From NCBI GenBank assembly GCA_023444705.1, contig JAEXMB010000033.1, positions 581-64,580 of the forward strand: 64,000 bases of DNA, written 5' to 3'. The position numbers and the translations under genes are program-made. The notes under the pieces were generated by a model. It had not been told where the DNA came from, searched no databases, and saw only the letters and a list, made by a program, of their open reading frames with translations. The DNA comes from Pseudomonadota bacterium (lineage in GTDB: Bacteria > Pseudomonadota > Alphaproteobacteria > Micavibrionales > UBA2020). Positions 3,991-63,779 of this stretch are shown one piece after another (within the stretch, counting starts at the first letter, position 1; every line of letters starts with the position of its first letter).

Positions 3991-4245
3991 ATGGCCAAAA
4001 GCACAAAAACGACGCTCGACAAAATCGACTGGGACAGCATCGCAACCGAGCTGCTGGCCACATTCAATGCGGCCAATACGTTGCGCACCACTGCCTATGG
4101 CAACGACGACAGACGACACAATGCCGAGCTGGCTGTACAGGCCGCGCTTGCGCTTGCGCAAGTCAGCGCCGAAGCCCGCGCCGTGCGCGAAGAAAAAGAG
4201 CGCGACAACTTCACGATCAGCAAACCCAAAGGGCAGCAGGCATGA
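3991..4245 (+). CDS. small hypothetical protein, tandem paralog A
   Basis: 84 aa. Shares IDWD, AY-x-x-D, an A-rich helix and the C-terminal F-x-(I/L)-SKP-x-G with the next ORF. Confidence 0.6.
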   Translation: MAKSTKTTLDKIDWDSIATELLATFNAANTLRTTAYGNDDRRHNAELAVQAALALAQVSAEARAVREEKERDNFTISKPKGQQA

Positions 4246-4487
4246 GCAACCCCGTAAAATCAGCCAGCGAGATCGACTGGGATAAAATGGCCAAGCGTCT
4301 TGGCCGTGCCTTTGATGATGCGATGGACGAGGCAGAACAGTATGCGTATTCCGATCAGGATTCCTGCGCGCCGCTGATCGCCGCCAGCAAGGCGGCACAA
4401 GCACTGGTCAAAATTTCCGAACGCGCGCAGGCGCAAAAGGAAGCGGCTGAAAAGAGCGGCTTTAAACTCTCCAAGCCCGCAGGCTGA
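4242..4487 (+). CDS. small hypothetical protein, tandem paralog B
   Basis: 81 aa. ATGA start/stop overlap with paralog A. Sequence SEIDWDKMAKRL...AAQALVKISERAQAQKEAAEKSGFKLSKPAG. Confidence 0.6.
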   Translation: MSNPVKSASEIDWDKMAKRLGRAFDDAMDEAEQYAYSDQDSCAPLIAASKAAQALVKISERAQAQKEAAEKSGFKLSKPAG

Positions 4488-4798: not shown

Positions 4799-6019
4799 TT
4801 AGTTGATTTCAGTGACGACTGCGTCGTCGTCGTCATCAGTGATGCCAAGCGCCGTCGCGGCGGCCTTGGTACCCTGCGCATAAAGAAGATAGTAGCGGTG
4901 TTCGATCAATCCAGCCTCGTAAGCATCGCGCGCGGATTTTTCCATCGTCTTGCCGTACTTGGGCACCATCGTCATCAGCTCGAACGGCCAGCGGTCGGCA
5001 GGCAGGTTGAGCATGCGCTCGCGGATTTCCTCGGTGAAAGGCATGTATTCGCGCAAGGCCACGCGTCCGCCGCCGATTCTCGGCACCAGCGTCTGCGTAA
5101 CGATCAGGCGCACGGTTTCCATCAGCGAATAGGCGCGCTCGGAGCGCTCGGACGGCTCGAACGTCGAGACCATGCGTCGGATGGTGGCGGCCACACCCGT
5201 GGTGTGGACGGTGGCGTAAACCGTGTGGCCGGTCTGCCCCGCTTCGATTGCGGCGTTGATGGTTTCGCGGTCGCGCGCCTCGCCCACCATGATGATCTCG
5301 GGCTTGCGGCGCAGGGCGTTGCGCACACCGGCGGCAAAGGTCGGCAAGTGGCGCGGAATTTCCGTCTGCGCGACCAATGATCTGCGCGAGGTGATGGTGT
5401 CGTAGGTGAATTCGATCGGCGCTTCGTACGTCAGCATCTTGCCGCAGCCGTGCGGGCTTTCGATCAGCATGCGGTTGCCAGCGGCCAGCAAGGTCGACTT
5501 ACCCGAACCGGTCGGCCCCGTCACCAGCACAAGCCCCTGACGCGGTTTCCAGTTTTCGATGATCTCGGGCTCGATGTTGAGCTGCTTCATCGTGGGCGGC
5601 GCCTGCGGCAGGGTACGCATGGTGACCTGCACGCCGTCGCGGCCATCGGCCAGAATCGCCGTCATGTTCACGCGAAAGCGCGTGCGCGTGAAACGATCAA
5701 CCATGATCTCGTAAGACAAGTCGATGTCCGCACCGCCGGCAAGGATGGCCAGTGCCTCCGTACCATAGAGGCGGGTGAGGATCGCCGTCATGTCGGCGGC
5801 GTCAAGCGCGCGGTGCGTGCCCGGATAAAGCGTGCCGTGAATTTCACAATAGACGGCGCGGTTGGATTGAAATGTGATGTCCGATGCGCCGCGCTTGACG
5901 CACCACAGCAGGAACGGGTCAATGTGATGCTCGAGAAAACGGTCCGGCTCGTTCGGCCAGGTTTCCTTGAGGTCATCGATACCCTTCTTGAGAAGGCTTA
6001 CCGGTCTGCCGGCTTCCAT
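4799..6019 (-). CDS. dotB: DotB/TraJ-type secretion ATPase (PilT/VirB11 superfamily)
   Basis: Walker A LVTGPTGSGKSTLL. Asp/His boxes IIMVGEARDRETINAAIEAGQTGHTVYATVHT. Sits in dotD-dotC-dotB order and overlaps dotC by 22 nt. Acidic C-tail DDDDDAVVTEIN. Confidence 0.85.
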   Translation of the reverse strand: MEAGRPVSLLKKGIDDLKETWPNEPDRFLEHHIDPFLLWCVKRGASDITFQSNRAVYCEIHGTLYPGTHRALDAADMTAILTRLYGTEALAILAGGADIDLSYEIMVDRFTRTRFRVNMTAILADGRDGVQVTMRTLPQAPPTMKQLNIEPEIIENWKPRQGLVLVTGPTGSGKSTLLAAGNRMLIESPHGCGKMLTYEAPIEFTYDTITSRRSLVAQTEIPRHLPTFAAGVRNALRRKPEIIMVGEARDRETINAAIEAGQTGHTVYATVHTTGVAATIRRMVSTFEPSERSERAYSLMETVRLIVTQTLVPRIGGGRVALREYMPFTEEIRERMLNLPADRWPFELMTMVPKYGKTMEKSARDAYEAGLIEHRYYLLYAQGTKAAATALGITDDDDDAVVTEIN

Positions 6020-7290
6020 TGCTGCGATCCTGTCAGGAATTCAGACGGGCCGGTGATACGCAGCGCGCGATCGCCCACCCGCATGAGGTTTTTGCCGCCG
6101 GTCACCCCGCGGTCTTCATGCATGGCGTAGGGTGCGGAAATCTTGCCCTCTGCCAGCAGGGTCCGGTAACGCACCATACCGTTATAGTCTGACACCAATT
6201 GGTTAAGATTGGTTTCAAAGGCTTCTTCACCCTGATTGTAGCCCGCTGTCCAGCCCTGCTTGACCCAGCTGTTCCATTCCAGCTGTTCCTTGTCATCCTT
6301 GGGCCACAAGACACGCGGCGGCGGCGTGATGTCGGTTTCGTATTCGGGCATCAGATAGGTGCGCCAGTCGCGCGGCGCGGCGACGATCTTCGCCTGCTTG
6401 TTGATGTCGAGGATCTGGTCGGCAACGGCGGCTTCGTTGCCGTCGTTGGTGATGAGGATATTGTCGAGCGATTCGCGCACGATCGGCGGTTCGATCAACA
6501 GGCCCGACGGCGCGCGCACCAAAAGCGCGCGGAAATTGAACACGCCGTCCATGACCTGTTCGTAATCTTCAAGACGTTCGGCCACCTGATACTGGCGCTT
6601 GGCAAGGCCGCCGCGCGCGCCGTACGACAAGGCCGCCTCGCGCTGGGCATCGCGGCGGATGTCGAGGTTGAGCAGTTCTTCCTCCACTTCCGCATCGGTG
6701 ACGTTATAGGTCGTGCCGTGCGTCTTGTGGACGTCTTGCAGGCGGTCAAGCTCGGGCGGGGTCGGCTCGTCCGTCACGGTCTGGCGCGGATCGACCACAG
6801 TCGCGCGCGCAAAGTTGGTGACGTCGCCGTCGCGCTTGGCCTTGTCGGCCAGCTTGTTCGCCTTGTATTGCGGGCTGTCGGGGTTTTTCAGCAGTGCATT
6901 CATCTCGTCGGATGAAATCTCGTCAGGTTGCTGGCCGGGCAGGACCATGCCGGGCGGATAGTAAAAACTCTGCACGCCCTGCGGCGTGACAAAGCCCTGC
7001 GGCACCATGATCTGGCCCTGCCCGTACTGACCTTGCCCGTACTGGCCTTGCATATAGGGCTGTTGCTGGCCGATCTGCTGGCCATAGCCGTATTGCTGTT
7101 GCGTGCCGCCCGTCGTCGTGCCCGATGACGGCGCGCCAAACATCTGCGCGATGGCGCTGGCGTTTGAATTGGGTTGTTGTTGCGTCGTGGTGGTTGTCGT
7201 CTGCGCATGGGCAGCCGTGTGCAGGGCCATCAGGGCGCCCGCCGCGACAATCATGAATGCTGTGCGTTTAACCGCCGGAAGCAGGCGCAT
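5998..7290 (-). CDS. dotC: DotC/TraI-type T4BSS outer-membrane-complex protein with an N-terminal Thr/Gln/Gly/Tyr low-complexity insert
   Basis: Signal peptide MIVAAGALMALHTAAHA. The conserved block EAALSYGARGGLAKRQYQV...FNFRALLVRAPSGLLIEPPIVRESL...AKIVAAPRDWRTYL fits the DotC family as I recall it. Lies between dotD and dotB. Confidence 0.8.
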   Translation of the reverse strand: MRLLPAVKRTAFMIVAAGALMALHTAAHAQTTTTTTQQQPNSNASAIAQMFGAPSSGTTTGGTQQQYGYGQQIGQQQPYMQGQYGQGQYGQGQIMVPQGFVTPQGVQSFYYPPGMVLPGQQPDEISSDEMNALLKNPDSPQYKANKLADKAKRDGDVTNFARATVVDPRQTVTDEPTPPELDRLQDVHKTHGTTYNVTDAEVEEELLNLDIRRDAQREAALSYGARGGLAKRQYQVAERLEDYEQVMDGVFNFRALLVRAPSGLLIEPPIVRESLDNILITNDGNEAAVADQILDINKQAKIVAAPRDWRTYLMPEYETDITPPPRVLWPKDDKEQLEWNSWVKQGWTAGYNQGEEAFETNLNQLVSDYNGMVRYRTLLAEGKISAPYAMHEDRGVTGGKNLMRVGDRALRITGPSEFLTGSQQWKPADR

Positions 7291-7801
7291 AGTTCAGCTC
7301 GACAACTTTCTGGTCGACATCGACCGAAATATCCGCGCGCGTGCCAGCCTGCAGGCCAACGTCGCGCAGCACCTCAACCACCGATTTCTGCTTGGCGATC
7401 ACATGCACAACCACGGGCGCGGGCGGCACATCGCCGTTGACGCGGAAGCGATAGCCCGCGCGGTCGGCCAGTTTTTGCGTCAGCGGTTCGATCGGGCCGA
7501 CCCACTCGACACTGACGCTGCGGCGCAGTTCCTGCGGTGCGGAGGGCACGGACTGGATGGCGACAGCGGGCGTGCGCGCCTGTTCGACCGACGCCAGCGT
7601 TTGCAGCGCAGCCGACGCGCGGTCGGCGGCGGATGCCAGACGCAGACTGACCGGATCGGGTTCGGCGACCATTTGCTGGTCGACCTTCTGGTTGAAATTC
7701 AGCGGCGCGCAGGCAGCCAGCGTGACGGCGAGCGCGGCGCACGCGACCAGCGCGGCAACGCGGCGGTATGGCAAGAGTGTGACAGCGGTATGTGACGGCA
7801 T
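7268..7801 (-). CDS. dotD: DotD/TraH-type T4BSS lipoprotein
   Basis: Lipobox-like LTLAAC after a hydrophobic stretch. The C-terminal domain VSVEWVGPIEPLTQKLADRAGYRFRVNGDVPPAPVVVHV...VLRDVGLQAGTRADISVDVDQKVVELNY resembles DotD. I chose the internal ATG at 7801 over the ORF-track start at 7906. Confidence 0.8.
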   Translation of the reverse strand: MPSHTAVTLLPYRRVAALVACAALAVTLAACAPLNFNQKVDQQMVAEPDPVSLRLASAADRASAALQTLASVEQARTPAVAIQSVPSAPQELRRSVSVEWVGPIEPLTQKLADRAGYRFRVNGDVPPAPVVVHVIAKQKSVVEVLRDVGLQAGTRADISVDVDQKVVELNYAPASGG

Positions 7802-8008
7802 GACGCCTGCGCTTCCCCTAATTTTTACCCTTGTGCAGGCGCGACGCCGTGCCAAAGGCATTTGGCGTGGCTGGCACCGGTCCCCCGACCGGACATCCCC
7901 ACGCATGAACCTATGTTTTTTAATTTTATGGGTTTACGCCGCCGCAAGCAAGCCTTTCGCGGACATGATGGCGGCAAAAGTCACAGTGTAATCTGGTAAA
8001 TGGAAACT

Positions 8009-21939: not shown

Positions 21940-22425
21940 TTAAAACTTGAAGCCGTCGCCGTTATCCTTGGGCGGCTTGCGCGCGGGCGGTGCCGGCGGC
22001 GTGGGGGGCTTTGGCGGTGCGGGCGGCTGCTTGGGCAGGCCAAAATCCATGCCCGGCAGTTTGGGCAGGCCGGGAATACCGGGCAGGTTGCCCAGCATCG
22101 GCAGCAGCGTTTTCATTTCATCCTGAATGTCGCGCGCCAGGTCAGCCAGCACGCTGGCGACTGCAGGATTGGTCTGCGCTTCGCGCTTGAGCTGCGACAG
22201 CGTCATTTGCAGATCCATGATTTGCGGCAGCATCTTCATCATCATGCGCTTGGGATCGCTGTCCTGATTGCGCGGATCCATTGATTGCGTGATCAGGTTG
22301 TCGATCTTGGTAGCCAGTTTCTTGAAGCTGCGTTGCGCGCTGCCGCTGTCGGCCTCGGCTGCGCGGTTGAAAGCCTCGCGGATACGCTCAACGGCTTTGA
22401 GGATTTCTTCGGGATCAAAACTCAT
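21940..22425 (-). CDS. hypothetical protein with a polyproline C-terminal region
   Basis: 161 aa. Helical N-part, then GIPGLPKLPGMDFGLPKQPPAPPKPPTPPAPPARKPPKDNGDGFKF. Confidence 0.6.
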   Translation of the reverse strand: MSFDPEEILKAVERIREAFNRAAEADSGSAQRSFKKLATKIDNLITQSMDPRNQDSDPKRMMMKMLPQIMDLQMTLSQLKREAQTNPAVASVLADLARDIQDEMKTLLPMLGNLPGIPGLPKLPGMDFGLPKQPPAPPKPPTPPAPPARKPPKDNGDGFKF

Positions 22426-57817: not shown

Positions 57818-57999
57818 ACCATTGCCAGCGAGGCATTTTTTAAACCAGACAGACGAAAAACATCGCAAAATCGCTTATTTTATTGCTTTTTTGAACAGCC
57901 ATTCACATGAAATGTTTGCACTGGCGTCCCCCCGCCTGCTATACCCCTAAGCGCATTTTTATTTTCCGAGAATCATTTAAGCACCAAAGGCTAACGACA

Positions 58000-58590
58000 A
58001 TGGGACGCAAGCTGGAATTCAGCAAAGACAAGGCGCTGTTACAGGCAATGGAAAGTTTCTGGGCGCAGGGCTACGACGCCACCTCGATGCGCGACCTCGC
58101 CCAGCGCCTTAACCTTCACCTCGGCTCGGTCTATAACGCCCTCGGCGACAAGGAAGAAGTCTTCGAGCAATCCCTGCGTCTCTACCTCAAGCACAAGGTC
58201 GTCCCTGTGATGTCGGCACTGGAAAGCAGCGAAGACCCGCGCGCCGCACTGTCGCAGTTCATCGACAAAATCATGGTTGACTGCCGTGCGGACAGTACTT
58301 CGCCCGGTTGCTTCATCGTCAACTCCCTGCTGTGCATCACCCGCATCAATGACAAGATCACCTCTGCCGTCCACGAATACATGCAGGTGCAGGAAGCCGC
58401 CATTTCCGCCTGCATCGCGCGCGCGCAGGCCGCCGGACACATTGACCGCGACGAGCGGCCCCAGCAACTAGCGCGCTTCGTCATCGCCTCGCTGAAATCC
58501 ATGCATGTGATGAAAAAGATCGGCGTCAATGACGACTATCTGCAGGACATCCGCGATACCGTCGACCGCCGCCTGTTTCAGGCCGCCTGA
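58000..58590 (+). CDS. TetR-family transcriptional regulator
   Basis: N-terminal HTH AMESFWAQGYDATSMRDLAQRLNLHLGSVYNALGDKEEVF. Start at ATG 58000. Confidence 0.85.
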   Translation: MGRKLEFSKDKALLQAMESFWAQGYDATSMRDLAQRLNLHLGSVYNALGDKEEVFEQSLRLYLKHKVVPVMSALESSEDPRAALSQFIDKIMVDCRADSTSPGCFIVNSLLCITRINDKITSAVHEYMQVQEAAISACIARAQAAGHIDRDERPQQLARFVIASLKSMHVMKKIGVNDDYLQDIRDTVDRRLFQAA

Positions 58591-58611
58591 CGCACGTCAC
58601 CGCCTGCCCCC

Positions 58612-59550
58612 CTATAATTTGAATTTATCGGGCCGCTGCGCCTGCTGTCGCGCGTTGATGTCTTCGCGCTTGAGCGCCGCCACGAAAGGTGCGAGGCTGA
58701 CTTTGTCTTTCATGCCAAAGGCCTCAAGCGCCTCGTGCAGCTTGAACGCATCCTCGCGCGCCGCGCGCCAGTGACGCGCATCAAAAACCTCCGTCAGCCG
58801 TCCGCGGGCGGCCAGAATACCAAGCAAAGTAACAGGCGCACCGGTGCGGTCATAGCTGATCGGATTAATGAATGCCGCCGCACGCCACTGGTTGCCGGCA
58901 GCGCGCATATGGTCAAACCGCGCCAGTGCCGTGCGCGCATCACCATGTGCGCAGGCCGCCTGCCACCACACCCTGTGCGTGTCTTCGTCACGGCGTTCTT
59001 CGTCAAAAACCTCGCGCAGCATCCTGGGCGCAAAGGGCGACATGCCCTGTTCGATCAGCAATTGCATCAGCTCGGGGCGGCATTCGTCGATGGCGATTTC
59101 TACCGCATCGCCGCCCAGTAACACATCAAACCCCGCCGCTGCCAGTTGCGGCACCACTACGGGGGCTGCAGCTTGCCGCCACGCATCGCCGATCAGCGTG
59201 CGCACATCGATTTCAGGCGCGGCAGCCACCACAGGCGCGAAAGCCTGCGCCACCGCTTCCTGTTCGGCCCCATCCACAAATTCAAGCTTGTCGACGATCG
59301 CCTTGAGGTCCTCGCGCTTTGGCACATAGCCGCGTGACAGGATATCCGCCGTCAGGGCGGATTTTCCGGCCAGAACCGCGGCCTCAAGCACAGCAATGGT
59401 CAGGGTATGGCGCGGTGTTTTCTGCGCGGGCGAAGCATCAAGGTATTCCTTGAGCAACGGCCAGTCCTTGGCATCCGCCGCGCGGTTGAGCGCAAACCAA
59501 AAACTGAAATCATCCGCAGGCAATTCTTTGTCGTCATCAGGCATGTTCAT
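58612..59550 (-). CDS. degenerate ANK/helical-repeat protein with a shared C-terminal module ending FKL
   Basis: Start at ATG 59550, ATGA-coupled. C-terminus PVTLLGILAARGRLTEVFDARHWRAA...RQQAQRPDKFKL. Confidence 0.6.
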   Translation of the reverse strand: MNMPDDDKELPADDFSFWFALNRAADAKDWPLLKEYLDASPAQKTPRHTLTIAVLEAAVLAGKSALTADILSRGYVPKREDLKAIVDKLEFVDGAEQEAVAQAFAPVVAAAPEIDVRTLIGDAWRQAAAPVVVPQLAAAGFDVLLGGDAVEIAIDECRPELMQLLIEQGMSPFAPRMLREVFDEERRDEDTHRVWWQAACAHGDARTALARFDHMRAAGNQWRAAAFINPISYDRTGAPVTLLGILAARGRLTEVFDARHWRAAREDAFKLHEALEAFGMKDKVSLAPFVAALKREDINARQQAQRPDKFKL

Positions 59551-60743
59551 GCGCCATTGCTCCCGCCTGCGGGTGCCAGCTTGAAGCAAGGCATCGGCGT
59601 TCCGATGCGATGGCGGCCAAACGCTGACCTGACCCTGCCGAGATCGACCTGCGCCTGCAGGTGTTGTGGTAATTGTCCGTGCATAGCCGCCGCCAGTGCG
59701 AAATCGCCGCGCCATGCCGCAGGATCAAAGGCCTGCGCCAGTTCCCCCCGCACGGCCAGCACCTCGGCCAGCGTGGCGCCATGTTCGTCTTGCGCTTGCA
59801 ACAGGTTGATGCCCGCCTGCGGCAACAGCGGCGCAACCACGCGCAGAAACGCGCCGCTGCGCGTCAGCGCAAATGCGGCCTGCGCACCCTCGGCACTGTG
59901 CAGGCTCTGCGCTGCCAGCACGCGACAGCTATGCGCCAGTGTTTGCGCATCAAGCACTTGGTGATTATCTGCATGCACCCAGGCTTGCATCAGCTCGCGC
60001 ACGCGCGCCGCGCGCATATTATCTGCGCCTGCTTCTTCAAGAAGGGCGAGATGCGCGGCTTTTTGTGCTGCATCGGGGCGGTAGCCTCTCTCGTAAAGAT
60101 CGCGCAAAATCGCGTAGGCGTGCTTTTTCATTGCTACGTCGTACAACGTATGCGCGGGCAGGCCTTCTTGCAGCGCGATGGCCGCATCGTCCGCATATTC
60201 GTTGTGGGCGATGGCTTCCAGCGCCGCCAGCAGTGCATCGGCCATCGCTTTTTCATCCATGCCGGTGCGCAACTCCGCCGGTTTTTCCAGCGACGCGATA
60301 TAGGGTAATTCATGCAGCATGTGGCGAAACAGCACGGGTGCTGCGTTGACCATGTTACCCAGTACGCGCGGCATATGCATGACCTTGGCGCCGCACGCGA
60401 TCAGCCATTGCGCAACCTCCCAGCGGCTGTTTTCAAGCGCGCAGTGCATGGGGTATTGCGCGATAGTCACGGCAGGATTGCTGTCGTCGAACAGGAACCC
60501 GTCGACCTTCACACCCAGCGCATGCAAACGTTGCGCAACAGCCAGATGGCCTTTGGCGCAGGCCGCGGCCAAGGCATCCTCGCCAGCGGCGCGCACAATC
60601 GCGGGCTCTGCCGTGATCAGCTTTTGCAGGCCGTCAATGTCGTTGCCGTCCGCACAAGCGATCAGCATTTGCTTGCGCTGCGCCTGTGTTGTAGAGGCCA
60701 GCAGGAAATCAATTGTCGCTGTCGGAAGGTCTTGCGCGTTCAT
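59547..60743 (-). CDS. degenerate ankyrin-repeat protein with a shared C-terminal module
   Basis: ACADGNDIDGLQKLITAEPAIVRAAGEDALAAACAKGHLAVAQRLHALGVKVD. C-terminus GATLAEVLAVRGELAQAFDPAAWRGD...MPCFKLAPAGGSNGA. Confidence 0.65.
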   Translation of the reverse strand: MNAQDLPTATIDFLLASTTQAQRKQMLIACADGNDIDGLQKLITAEPAIVRAAGEDALAAACAKGHLAVAQRLHALGVKVDGFLFDDSNPAVTIAQYPMHCALENSRWEVAQWLIACGAKVMHMPRVLGNMVNAAPVLFRHMLHELPYIASLEKPAELRTGMDEKAMADALLAALEAIAHNEYADDAAIALQEGLPAHTLYDVAMKKHAYAILRDLYERGYRPDAAQKAAHLALLEEAGADNMRAARVRELMQAWVHADNHQVLDAQTLAHSCRVLAAQSLHSAEGAQAAFALTRSGAFLRVVAPLLPQAGINLLQAQDEHGATLAEVLAVRGELAQAFDPAAWRGDFALAAAMHGQLPQHLQAQVDLGRVRSAFGRHRIGTPMPCFKLAPAGGSNGA

Positions 60744-62245
60744 AGCTTGAACTGCCCGTTGCTGGCGCGCTGGCGTGCTTCGAGCGTATCCAGCTGGACC
60801 TTGTGCAACAACGCGTGGCGCGCTTGGGGCGGCAGATATTTATCGTCAATCACCGACAGTAGCGCGCGCAGCGGTGCAACCCTGCCTGTCCAGAAATCCG
60901 GCGACAGCAGGATATCAAGCTGCCCGCTGGCCGCTGCCAGGTCGACCAGCCGCACACCGGCGGGGTTTTTAGCTGTCCATACCACACTATCAGGCAGCGC
61001 GATCATTTCACGGCGCAACAGAATATCAAGAACGCGATGGCGCGCGGCGTGGTGCAGCAGGCCTTCGTAGCAGCCCTTGACGGTGGGAACATGCGGATCG
61101 CGATAGACCTGCGGCGCCAGCGCGGCATCATCGTCAAGTGTTTGTTGCGGCATCAGCCGAGCTGCATTGCGCGCGCGCAGGTTTTGGGTGCTGGCATCGA
61201 TGCGCGCAATCGTTTCAGCGCACAGATCGGGGCGAACCCATTGCCCGACCGCCTGGATTGCCGCCACGGGATTGGCGCCAGTGGCCAGCAACGTATCGAC
61301 AATGCCCATGCGGCGTTCGATTTCATCCGCGCGTGCATCGGCATGGGCGTCACGCGCGTTCAGTGCGGTGGCAAGGTTGCGCACGGCATGGCGGATGGCG
61401 GCATTGTCAAAAGCCAGCGGATCACCGCCAAAGCGCTGCGCAATGCGCGCGCATTCGATATTGTTTTTATCAAGCGCCGCCACAAGCATCTGGCCGATAT
61501 GATCGTCGTTGAGGTAGTCGATCCCATGATCGAGCAATGCCTGAAACGTGCGCGCATGGCCTTCGGCAGCCGCGCGGATGGCGATGTTGTGAAAGGCGTT
61601 GTTGAACGGCGAAAACACGCCATCCGCAGCGCTGAAATGCGCCGTAAGAATTTCAAGCGCGAGTTCCGCGCGGTTATTGGCACTGCAGGCATGCAGGTAG
61701 TTGACTAGCAGCTTGATCTTTTTTTCCGCCAGTTGCGGGCCAAGCCCGCAGGCAGGCGCAATCAATGCGCGCGCCAGCGCCGCATGGCCTTCGCGCACGG
61801 CCAGTCCGGCCAATGCCGCCTTTTCCTCGTAATTGGTATAGGCGGCATCACAGGCCGCAAGCCATGTCAGTGCCGCATCATTGTGCGCAATGACAGCACC
61901 CTGCCAGGCGGCGTGACACAGGCTGGCGATATCGCGGCGTTGTCCGTGCGTGTCGTAAAGTGCCGCCAGTACCGCGCTGTCGCCCTGCCCGCCGGCGGCG
62001 CGCCAAAGAATTTCCGCCGGTGCGGGCACGTTGTTTTCGGCGATGATGACCAGCGTATCGCGCAACGCGCGCGCGTCTTGTGCGGCAATCGCGCGCAATG
62101 CCGCATCAACGCGTGCCTGATGCGCGGCCGCCACCTGAAAGGGCAGACGCGAGCTGGGCGACAAACGTGTACGCGCGGCGCGGGAGCGCATGGGCCAAAT
62201 ACCGGAAAAACAAGTTAACTCAATGGGTTCGCGCAAGTCTTGCAT
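60740..62245 (-). CDS. degenerate ANK/helical-repeat protein with a shared C-terminal module ending FKL
   Basis: C-terminus GVRLVDLAAASGQLDILLSPDFWTGRV...RQRASNGQFKL. The start may instead be the internal ATG at 62191. Confidence 0.6.
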   Translation of the reverse strand: MQDLREPIELTCFSGIWPMRSRAARTRLSPSSRLPFQVAAAHQARVDAALRAIAAQDARALRDTLVIIAENNVPAPAEILWRAAGGQGDSAVLAALYDTHGQRRDIASLCHAAWQGAVIAHNDAALTWLAACDAAYTNYEEKAALAGLAVREGHAALARALIAPACGLGPQLAEKKIKLLVNYLHACSANNRAELALEILTAHFSAADGVFSPFNNAFHNIAIRAAAEGHARTFQALLDHGIDYLNDDHIGQMLVAALDKNNIECARIAQRFGGDPLAFDNAAIRHAVRNLATALNARDAHADARADEIERRMGIVDTLLATGANPVAAIQAVGQWVRPDLCAETIARIDASTQNLRARNAARLMPQQTLDDDAALAPQVYRDPHVPTVKGCYEGLLHHAARHRVLDILLRREMIALPDSVVWTAKNPAGVRLVDLAAASGQLDILLSPDFWTGRVAPLRALLSVIDDKYLPPQARHALLHKVQLDTLEARQRASNGQFKL

Positions 62246-62353
62246 AGTTATTTTGTTATGTCAACACAACCGGCTTTATTCTACGCAAGCCATTGAAAGT
62301 GGTGACTTTTACCCCCGTGCCGCCTAAACTGGTGAAAACGGGAGAAAAGCGCC

Positions 62354-62569
62354 ATGAATCCAACAGAAGTCAAACGCCTGCAAACCTACCTGCAGACCAA
62401 ATTCGGCAATACCAAGCTGACCCTCAACGTCCGCAAGGAAGATAAAAATTCGCTCGAGGTCATGCTGGCTGGCGAGTTCATCGGCACCATCTACCGCGAC
62501 GAAGACGAAGGCGATGTGTCTTACGACTTCAACATGGCCATTCTCGACATGGACCTGCCCGCCGCCTGA
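62354..62569 (+). CDS. DUF3126-like small conserved protein
   Basis: EVKRLQTYLQTKFGNTKLTLNVRKEDKNSLEVMLAGEFIGTIYRDEDEGDVSYDFNMAI matches my memory of this alphaproteobacterial family. GGGAGAA RBS. Confidence 0.75.
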   Translation: MNPTEVKRLQTYLQTKFGNTKLTLNVRKEDKNSLEVMLAGEFIGTIYRDEDEGDVSYDFNMAILDMDLPAA

Positions 62570-62606
62570 GCATCGCGGCCTCTGAATCACGACAAGGTCA
62601 GGGTTC

Positions 62607-63779
62607 ATGCGTCTTTACAACAAAACGTTGCGCGAGATTTGGGACGACCTGCCGTTGCCCTACCGCATCGTCGTGGTTGCGGGCGCACTGTTCATCGTCT
62701 TTACCCTGATCTTTTTGTTGTTTCTGACCGCATCGGGCCTTGGTCGCGCAATGAACGCGGGCAAGGGGCAGCTTGAAATCAACGCCGCGCGCGCCGTTGG
62801 CCTGCTCGATCCATCGATGGCCAGCGATGGTAAAACTATCAGTGCGCTGGCCTATACCAGCCTTGAAGCGCAAAACGGCATTCGCATCAGCCTTGCCACC
62901 ACCGGTTTTCCCTGCCAGCGCTGGCGTTGGAACCAGGATATTTTCGAAGAGCGCCGCGAAACGCTGCTCGCACCCGATGGCACCACCACGCTGTCACAGG
63001 GCATGACGCGCTATGAAACACCCGCCCTCGTCTACGATCCGCAAGACAGCGCCGCACCGTGGAAGATCTTCGCCTACCGCTATTTCTGGATGGGCAATGC
63101 CGATTTCGCGCAACGCTACAGCACCATTGTCATGCGCACCGCACCCGCCGTCACCGGCCCGTGGAGCAAGGAAGAATGGATATTGGGCACCGCGCCCGAC
63201 TATCCCCCGCCGCCCTATCAGGGACTGGTGCGCGCACATATCAATCCGATGAGCGCGCAATTGTCTGGCATCACCGGCTACGCACGGCCAAGCGTCGTTG
63301 AAGACCGCGGGGTTTTGCTGATGTCGCTTGCCGCATTCAAAGGCCCCGCCGATATCGAGCGCATCGTCCTGCTGGCCTCACTTGATCACGGCAAGCGCTG
63401 GGTTTACGCCGGCACGCTTCTCACGCGCGCGCAACTGGCGCAAATTGGCGCCTTTACGCGTATCAGCGGCGCTTCTCTGCTCAAGCAAGGTCAGGCGATC
63501 TATCTCGCGGCCGTTTTCGGCGATGCGCAGACCAGTGCCAACGGCACCTATCTTTTCCGCATCAGCGACCCCGCCAAGGCCAAGCTGGTCAGCAATGACA
63601 ACGGCGTGCCGGCACCCGTGCTGTTTATCGACCGCCAGTCCGCGGCCCCCACGCCCCAGGGCGGCGGCTATGCGGCATTTGACGAGAGCTGCCCCCTTGG
63701 CATCGTTACGTCGGAATATTCGGGCTTGCTCAACAACTACCGACTGTTCAGCACACTGGTCATGCCGGCAGGCAAATAA
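62607..63779 (+). CDS. membrane-anchored hypothetical protein (beta-rich ectodomain)
   Basis: N-terminal [24 protein letters not shown]. 390 aa. No catalytic motif recognised. Confidence 0.55.

Follow-up and report, generated by a model that had tools for sequence, protein, structure and literature searches.

The signals that direct proteins to the type IVB secretion systems (T4BSSs) of Legionella and Coxiella are degenerate, and effectors have been found there by machine learning and screening. Among type IVA systems, the Bep effectors of Bartonella carry a bipartite VirB/VirD4 signal composed of the BID domain and a tail, and the Agrobacterium VirB/D4 substrates VirE2 and VirF carry a short, basic, unstructured C-terminal tag with an Arg-rich consensus. 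In Xanthomonas, a conserved C-terminal domain of about 120 amino acids (aa), XVIPCD, binds VirD4 and marks a family of antibacterial toxins with varied N-terminal parts. Here we describe three overlapping genes whose products share a C-terminal domain, which we call the module, followed by a short basic tail. The genes lie in a 64,000-nucleotide (nt) stretch of the genome of an uncultured, Micavibrio-like alphaproteobacterium of the order Micavibrionales (genome G000, contig C98, positions 581-64580; this whole stretch is the window, and its coordinates are used below unless a contig label is given). The module is a real domain, and we propose, with confidence only slightly better than even, that the three proteins are substrates of a T4BSS and that the tail is the export tag.

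All three genes are on the minus strand. Gene 1 (60740-62245) encodes P0001, 501 aa as an open reading frame (ORF), with ankyrin (ANK) repeats mid-protein, the module and a tail ending in SNGQFKL. Gene 2 (59547-60743) encodes P0002, a protein of 398 aa with N-terminal ANK repeats, the module and a tail in which PCFKL is followed by a 9-aa Gly-rich extension. Gene 3 (58612-59550) encodes P0003, 312 aa from the ATG in its overlap with gene 2, with the module and a tail ending in RPDKFKL. The C-terminal module is the only part that can be aligned between the three proteins. An initial annotation of this DNA had proposed that their C-termini share a module of roughly 70 aa, and the C-terminal strings that it quoted match the sequence exactly.

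Pairwise BLAST gave E 8e-4 for P0002 and P0003, E 0.19 for P0001 and P0002, and no match between P0001 and P0003, values that favor an explanation in which the similarity is chance plus ankyrin consensus. We therefore turn to profiles, by which this dismissal on pairwise BLAST alone is overturned. An independent profile was built from the third module of a triple-module protein encoded on contig C13, using 76 foreign orthologues and no sequences from the source genome. It scored P0001 at 23.7, P0002 at 31.5 and P0003 at 16.0 bits, against a maximum of 8.7 bits among 1000 shuffles of the last 120 aa of each protein (0/1000 above that value in each case). Among the 2,088 gene calls of the genome, its matches were limited to the C13 protein, a protein encoded on contig C5, and P0001-P0003. 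The module and tail span 60743-61012 in gene 1 (E 3.7e-20 with profile A1) and 58615-58893 in gene 3 (E 2.9e-25 with a profile), while the module of gene 2 occupies 59577-59807 and ends at the FKL codons (59577-59585). Because the profile scores lie far above the shuffles and are specific genome-wide, we judge the C-terminal similarity to be real, and the module is confirmed as a conserved, homologous domain. Hundreds of homologues share its architecture, and the probability that chance and ankyrin consensus account for it is negligible. The shared module of the initial annotation is thus borne out: the shuffled control that it had named as a refuting condition did not overturn the similarity. 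No Pfam or NCBIfam model covers the module.

When the C-terminal ends were searched against the ORFs of the genome, the same block appeared in four further proteins. The C13 protein (C13:10725-12215, about 500 aa) carries the block three times and ends in GNFKLK, the C5 protein (C5:20620-21633) combines ANK repeats with one block and ends in RLRLPKPPRP, and two adjacent genes on C66 encode proteins ending in RRYKLGPK and KKHFKL. Against 1.84 billion representative proteins, a module profile matched 466 clusters at E<=1e-3 and 120 at E<=1e-10. Those homologues that have a name are all called 'hypothetical protein', and the module is a domain family undescribed in databases. In 129 of the best 150 representatives, the last module ends no more than 25 residues from the C-terminus, and 41 of 49 single-module proteins have N-terminal Pfam ANK repeats. 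The triple-module protein is the best-conserved carrier of the module, with 86 orthologues at 42-92% identity, all named hypothetical, and its gene adjoins genes for a large P-loop protein and a vWA-like protein.

The module itself begins with an ankyrin-like segment. In a search of its sequence profile against the PDB, positions 12-37 matched designed consensus ANK proteins at E 0.0017, and this was the sole region with a PDB match; a degenerate ANK repeat makes up the first third of the module. The similarity noted in the initial annotation is therefore in part ankyrin consensus, namely the 'G.TLL..AA.G.L' part of its alignment, and it is the F.P..W.GR block and everything downstream of it that are module-specific. 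AlphaFold modeled the P0002 module alone with a predicted local distance difference test (pLDDT) score of 80, as a hairpin and two helices followed by three more helices, with the last 17 residues, FKL included, as coil. As read from sequence and models, the layout is one degenerate ANK repeat, a Trp-containing helical cap, a long polar helix and a predicted disordered basic tail. A Foldseek search of this isolated model against the PDB and the viral library BFVD returned nothing at E <1. The model of the triple-module protein reached a pLDDT of 91.4, and its PDB matches were weak and limited to ANK proteins and designed ankyrin repeat proteins (DARPins; E 4e-3, template modeling score 0.16-0.3).

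The bodies that precede the module are diverse. The initial annotation had described all three N-terminal regions as ANK-like, a description that stands for two of them. P0002 has ANK repeats at residues 28-122 (60378-60662, minus strand), where Pfam Ank_2 scores 28.7 bits (cut-off 27.3) and Ank_3 25 bits (cut-off 22.3). P0001 scores below the cut-off for Ank_2 (20.3 bits), and the profile of its orthologues matches DARPins at E 3.3e-5. For the N-terminal region of P0003, neither Pfam nor a profile search gave any family match, ANK included. No signal peptide is visible in P0001-P0003 on reading their N-termini.

The tail extends well beyond the module. A crude gene call of the source genome yielded 1,994 complete proteins among its 2,088 genes, and 28 of these have [FY]K[LF] within their last 12 residues, against 5.2 expected. 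An exact [FY]KL end occurs in 13 of them, against 0.46 expected (p 4e-15); a fourteenth such protein, on C66, was miscalled by the gene caller and stands outside this count. Position -4 is K or R in 12 of the 13, and Gly, Asp or Asn is common at -5 to -7, so the general tag can be written as [KR]-[FY]-K-L, with or without a Gly/Lys/Pro extension. Its carriers are ANK and orphan proteins, many of them in tandem arrays (C29 15229-20313, C94 and C90), and the tail is found in 8 of 33 ANK genes compared with 47 of 1,994 genes overall (Fisher p 5e-7). The C29 array consists of small ankyrin genes (176-236 aa), most with 4-nt overlaps, and six of their products end in R/K-[FY]-K-L or a close variant. 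The initial annotation had also pointed to two additional FKL-type ends in the window, and both are present: a Pro-rich ORF without the module (21940-22425, minus strand) ends in KDNGDGFKF, a tail of the same class, and an 81-aa ORF (4242-4487, plus strand) in the dotB/dotD sub-cluster ends in SGFKLSKPAG, in which a Lys/Pro extension follows GFKL.

The seven module proteins encoded in the genome all have the tail or a close variant of it, and most tail proteins have no module. Because at least 13 proteins of the genome carry the tail without the module, the module is unlikely, on this sequence survey, to be the export signal itself or a general requirement for export. The suggestion in the initial annotation of a conserved C-terminal targeting, secretion or host-binding module on a diversifying family therefore holds in part: the C-terminal domain is conserved and is what the three proteins have in common, and its role as an export signal is doubtful. 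We regard it as a family-specific C-terminal domain that may display the tail or interact with a common partner.

The tail is maintained among orthologues. Tails of gene 1 orthologues read G[RQ]FKL, those of gene 2 [RQ]FK[LF] with a Gly/Lys extension, and those of gene 3 [KR]F[KR]L. Across the 76 orthologues of the triple-module protein, the consensus is FKL, either terminal or followed by extensions rich in KP or GG. Another tail protein lacks both ANK repeats and the module; its orthologue at 53% identity keeps the terminal D/P-x-R-[FY]-[KR]-L while the preceding residues diverge. AlphaFold models predict the tail to be coil. A terminal -[FY]KL is also reminiscent of eukaryotic sorting or docking signals that need a free carboxyl end, such as a peroxisomal targeting signal type 1 (PTS1) or a class II PDZ ligand, the likeness being that the C-terminus has a hydrophobic-basic-Leu shape preceded at -4 by a basic residue. 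P0002, all of its orthologues and most triple-module orthologues have 1-15 residues, as Gly/Lys/Pro extensions, past the motif. Since such extensions are tolerated, a free carboxyl end is evidently not required, nor is it conserved, and Phe or Tyr at -3 is not canonical for PTS1; we consider a signal of this kind very improbable. Basic C-termini are a broader feature of this genome: the tripeptides RKP, KPP, PKP, KPA and PAP are enriched 5- to 11-fold in the last 15 residues of called proteins genome-wide, and, with DotM itself ending in KPKKKKKG, basic tails occur outside the effector-like proteins as well.

By profile matches, the source genome encodes a chromosomal Dot/Icm-type T4BSS. Two of its components are in the window, the ATPase gene dotB (4799-6019, minus strand; TIGR02524, 2.7e-112) and the lipoprotein gene dotD (7268-7906, minus strand; NF033882, 4.3e-33). 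A dotI(x2)-dotH-dotG-dotF-icmC-icmD-dotN-dotO cluster is on C5, with matches at 8e-54 for DotI, 3e-67 for DotH and 8e-20 for DotN and with a DotG-like protein present. On C37, dotL (C37:23855-26458) and dotM are adjacent; DotM matches PDB 6sz9 at E 1e-22, and the coupling protein encoded next to dotM is the single one found in the genome. The ANK-plus-module gene on C5 is the immediate neighbor of dotO, where the dotI-dotO cluster ends, and at least 13 genomes of the family keep it in this position. The distance between a module gene and dotH, measured on the dotO side, is 8-14 kb in G000 and in 12 relatives.

DotH is encoded in 40 of 41 sampled genomes of the order. The module is present in 25 of the 41, and most genomes of family f1 have 10-14 copies each. 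Among 301 evenly sampled Alphaproteobacteria, the module occurs in only three genomes, all of them among the 24 with DotH. Dot/Icm-type DotH (about 200-270 bits) was found in roughly 21 of these 301 genomes, from some 15 families and mostly of 1-4 Mb, and such machines look commoner in Alphaproteobacteria than the literature we searched suggests. The genome paper of M. aeruginosavorus, a strain that may or may not be among the genomes sampled, reports no type IV secretion system (PMC3189940). In the NCBI taxonomy, Micavibrio is placed under Bdellovibrionales. Our literature searches found no description of a T4BSS, the module or the tail motif in Micavibrio-like bacteria.

Taken together, these observations suggest that the tail is probably an address tag for the type IVB machine. 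We infer export via the tail because the tail is spread over effector-like proteins, is conserved and disordered, and occurs on proteins without signal peptides, and because a T4BSS is present and linked to module genes. In the model that we propose, the three proteins would be made in the cytoplasm with the translation of their genes coupled, and each would consist of a variable helical or ankyrin-repeat body, the common helical C-terminal domain and the disordered basic [KR]-[FY]-K-L tail. The tail would be read by the coupling complex (DotL/DotM/DotN) and the proteins passed to the T4BSS; once injected into a target cell, they would bind target proteins through their repeat bodies. Co-transcription, export, the identity of the exporting machine and the kind of target cell are all inferred parts of this model.

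The linkage to T4BSS genes also bears on which machine would do the exporting. Tails of this kind, with or without the module, could instead be the C-terminal signal of another exporter, for example type I secretion, as for the ankyrin proteins of Orientia, and type I signals are indeed C-terminal and uncleaved. Pfam found no RTX or acidic repeats in these proteins, 4-15 further residues sometimes follow the motif, a module gene stands beside dotO in 13 genomes, and tail-bearing genes lie in the window with T4BSS genes, all of which makes another exporter quite unlikely. A type I substrate of the RTX kind was rejected outright, as there is no RTX match and the neighbors of the operon are a TetR gene, ANK genes and a protease rather than transporters.

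A further explanation dispenses with export. The module and tail may simply be a C-terminal cap that an expanded ankyrin family has inherited, with the basic-hydrophobic tail acting at the destination of the protein, for example on acidic membranes or a common partner. This would fit the ANK repeat that forms the first third of the module, the ANK proteins that are the best fold matches of the triple-module protein, the 41 of 49 module carriers that are ANK proteins, and the basic and aromatic character of the tails. Among orthologues, moreover, the module is conserved no better than the rest of each protein. It is harder to reconcile with the presence of the same tail on unrelated proteins lacking both the ANK repeats and the module, where it is kept at 53% identity while neighboring residues diverge. 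Tail proteins have no signal peptide in their N-termini as read, yet look like effectors, and within the 301-genome sample every genome with the module also has a T4BSS. On balance we consider a cap unrelated to export unlikely.

Besides the unexceptional conservation of the module, several other results weigh against our proposal that the tail addresses proteins to the T4BSS, or fail to support it. The tails are basic, with a net charge of +1 to +5, whereas the Dot/Icm signal of Legionella is Glu-rich. In a census of 40 relatives for the DNA pattern of a terminal [FY]K[LF] followed by a stop, forward counts were not above those of the reversed-pattern control; the exception was G000, with 20 forward and 14 reversed. 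The census is uninformative, one reason being that the tails of relatives carry extensions. IcmS (PF12608) was not found in the genome, which is 85% complete, and control genomes likewise gave no match, which leaves this search uninformative. In an alignment to Legionella DotM, two of the four basic Legionella residues read from it are still basic here, and no charge reversal is evident, a result that counts neither for nor against the proposal. Finally, the T4BSS is found throughout the order and the module in only three of eight sampled families (f1, f4 and f8), so that their co-occurrence is one-way and weak.

A possible reader of the tail, which we offer as a lead only, is DotL. The last ~170 residues of DotL are strongly acidic (33 D/E vs 7 K/R) and contain four P-[LI]-[NS]-W-x-[DE]-[VI]-I-G repeats, and DotL of eight other genomes in the family retains three to four of them. 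Homologues of this DotL tail were limited to families f1 and f8, and the tail repeats correlate with the module only in part: in genus g5 the repeats are present but the module is mostly lacking, and in f4 the module is present with no detectable DotL-tail match. In a more specific and distinctly tentative form of our proposal, which we think doubtful as a whole, the T4BSS of this widespread uncultured lineage would recognize a tag defined by its sequence, in which the polar helix is followed by a Gly/Asp break and then [KR]-[FY]-K-L. The module that caps the ankyrin repeats would provide a second element for docking, and recognition would occur through the conserved P-[LI]-[SN]-W-x-[DE]-V-I-G repeats of the DotL tail.

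The three genes are arranged as a compact unit. The initial annotation had noted that they overlap by ATGA, and these stop/start overlaps lie exactly at 60740-60743 (genes 1 and 2) and 59547-59550 (genes 2 and 3), both on the minus strand. The first is kept in the relative loci L018 and L019, the second in L019, with a 1-nt gap in L018. In relatives, the three genes are syntenic with 4-nt overlaps and encode proteins of 53-69% identity, as in the six orthologues of P0002 (53-69% identity). Orthologues of gene 1 have 479-484 aa and their alignment begins at M19 of P0001; for these reasons, the true start of P0001 is probably the ATG at 62191, not 62245, which would give a predicted protein of 483 aa. 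The extension that follows FKL in P0002, APAGGSNGA, is encoded by 59550-59576, where the GGGAG ribosome-binding site of gene 3 and its start are also found; the gene overlap may be why the extension exists. A promoter and terminator scan of 58400-62700 gave results no better than shuffles. The three genes constitute a conserved operon that is probably co-translated, and they would also be co-transcribed. A convergent TetR-family gene (57907-58590, plus strand) holds the same place in relatives (PF00440 / PF16925 in L018 and L019), and an 86-aa ORF, a 335-aa ORF, a large ANK gene and a gene for a trypsin-like protease are syntenic there as well.

The new elements are the module family, the motif [KR][FY]KL and the lead to the DotL tail. 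The finding adds a domain family of 466 clusters that databases do not describe, and it indicates a candidate partner in the repeat-bearing acidic tail of DotL. If the tail is an export signal, effectors could be listed directly from sequence across the whole order of Micavibrio-like bacteria, for which the candidate targets are protist hosts or bacterial prey. If a tag read by DotL proves true, it would be the first motif-defined type IVB signal, and the whole effector set would be readable from sequence.

Of the described systems, the Dot/Icm ankyrin effectors of Legionella and Coxiella (Ank/LegA) share with these proteins the ANK repeats, the absence of a signal peptide, a Dot/Icm-type machine encoded in the same genome, many lineage-specific paralogues and a disordered C-terminal end as presumed signal. 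They differ in that the proteins described here have a conserved folded domain before the tail and an alphaproteobacterial host in which no IcmS was found, and in that the Legionella signal is degenerate where the tail here is basic and defined by a motif. The Glu-rich 'E-block' signal was accordingly rejected as a description of these tails. NCBIfam effector models match the three proteins through their ANK repeats only, far below cut-offs. Poxvirus, Orientia and Wolbachia proteins with ANK repeats and a PRANC or F-box domain likewise form expanded families in which ankyrin repeats precede a small conserved helical C-terminal domain; this assignment was also rejected, since Pfam gave no such match for the three proteins at E<=1, nor for 49 relatives at E<=1e-3, and the pLDDT 80 model gave no PDB or viral fold match.

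Among type IVA substrates, Bartonella Beps are alike in being paralogous effectors in which a short, unstructured and positively charged tail comes after a folded helical C-terminal domain of ~70-100 aa, and they differ in that many tail proteins here have no such domain. We rejected the BID domain itself, as Pfam found no BID match in the three proteins or the 49 relatives and the sole coupling protein adjoins dotM. The Agrobacterium tag is similarly short, basic and unstructured, with a consensus that has no hydrophobic-Lys-hydrophobic core. XVIPCD, like the module, is a conserved C-terminal domain on proteins with varied N-terminal parts; we set it apart here by description, by its length, its type IVA partner and its antibacterial toxins, and we know of no sequence relation between the two. 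The architecture of the three proteins would thus work like that of type IV effector families with a C-terminal domain and a charged tail, such as the Bartonella BID plus tail and the Xanthomonas XVIPCD. In contrast to the degenerate signals of Legionella and Coxiella, the C-terminal tag here is sharp and conserved, and it is paired with a previously undescribed domain.

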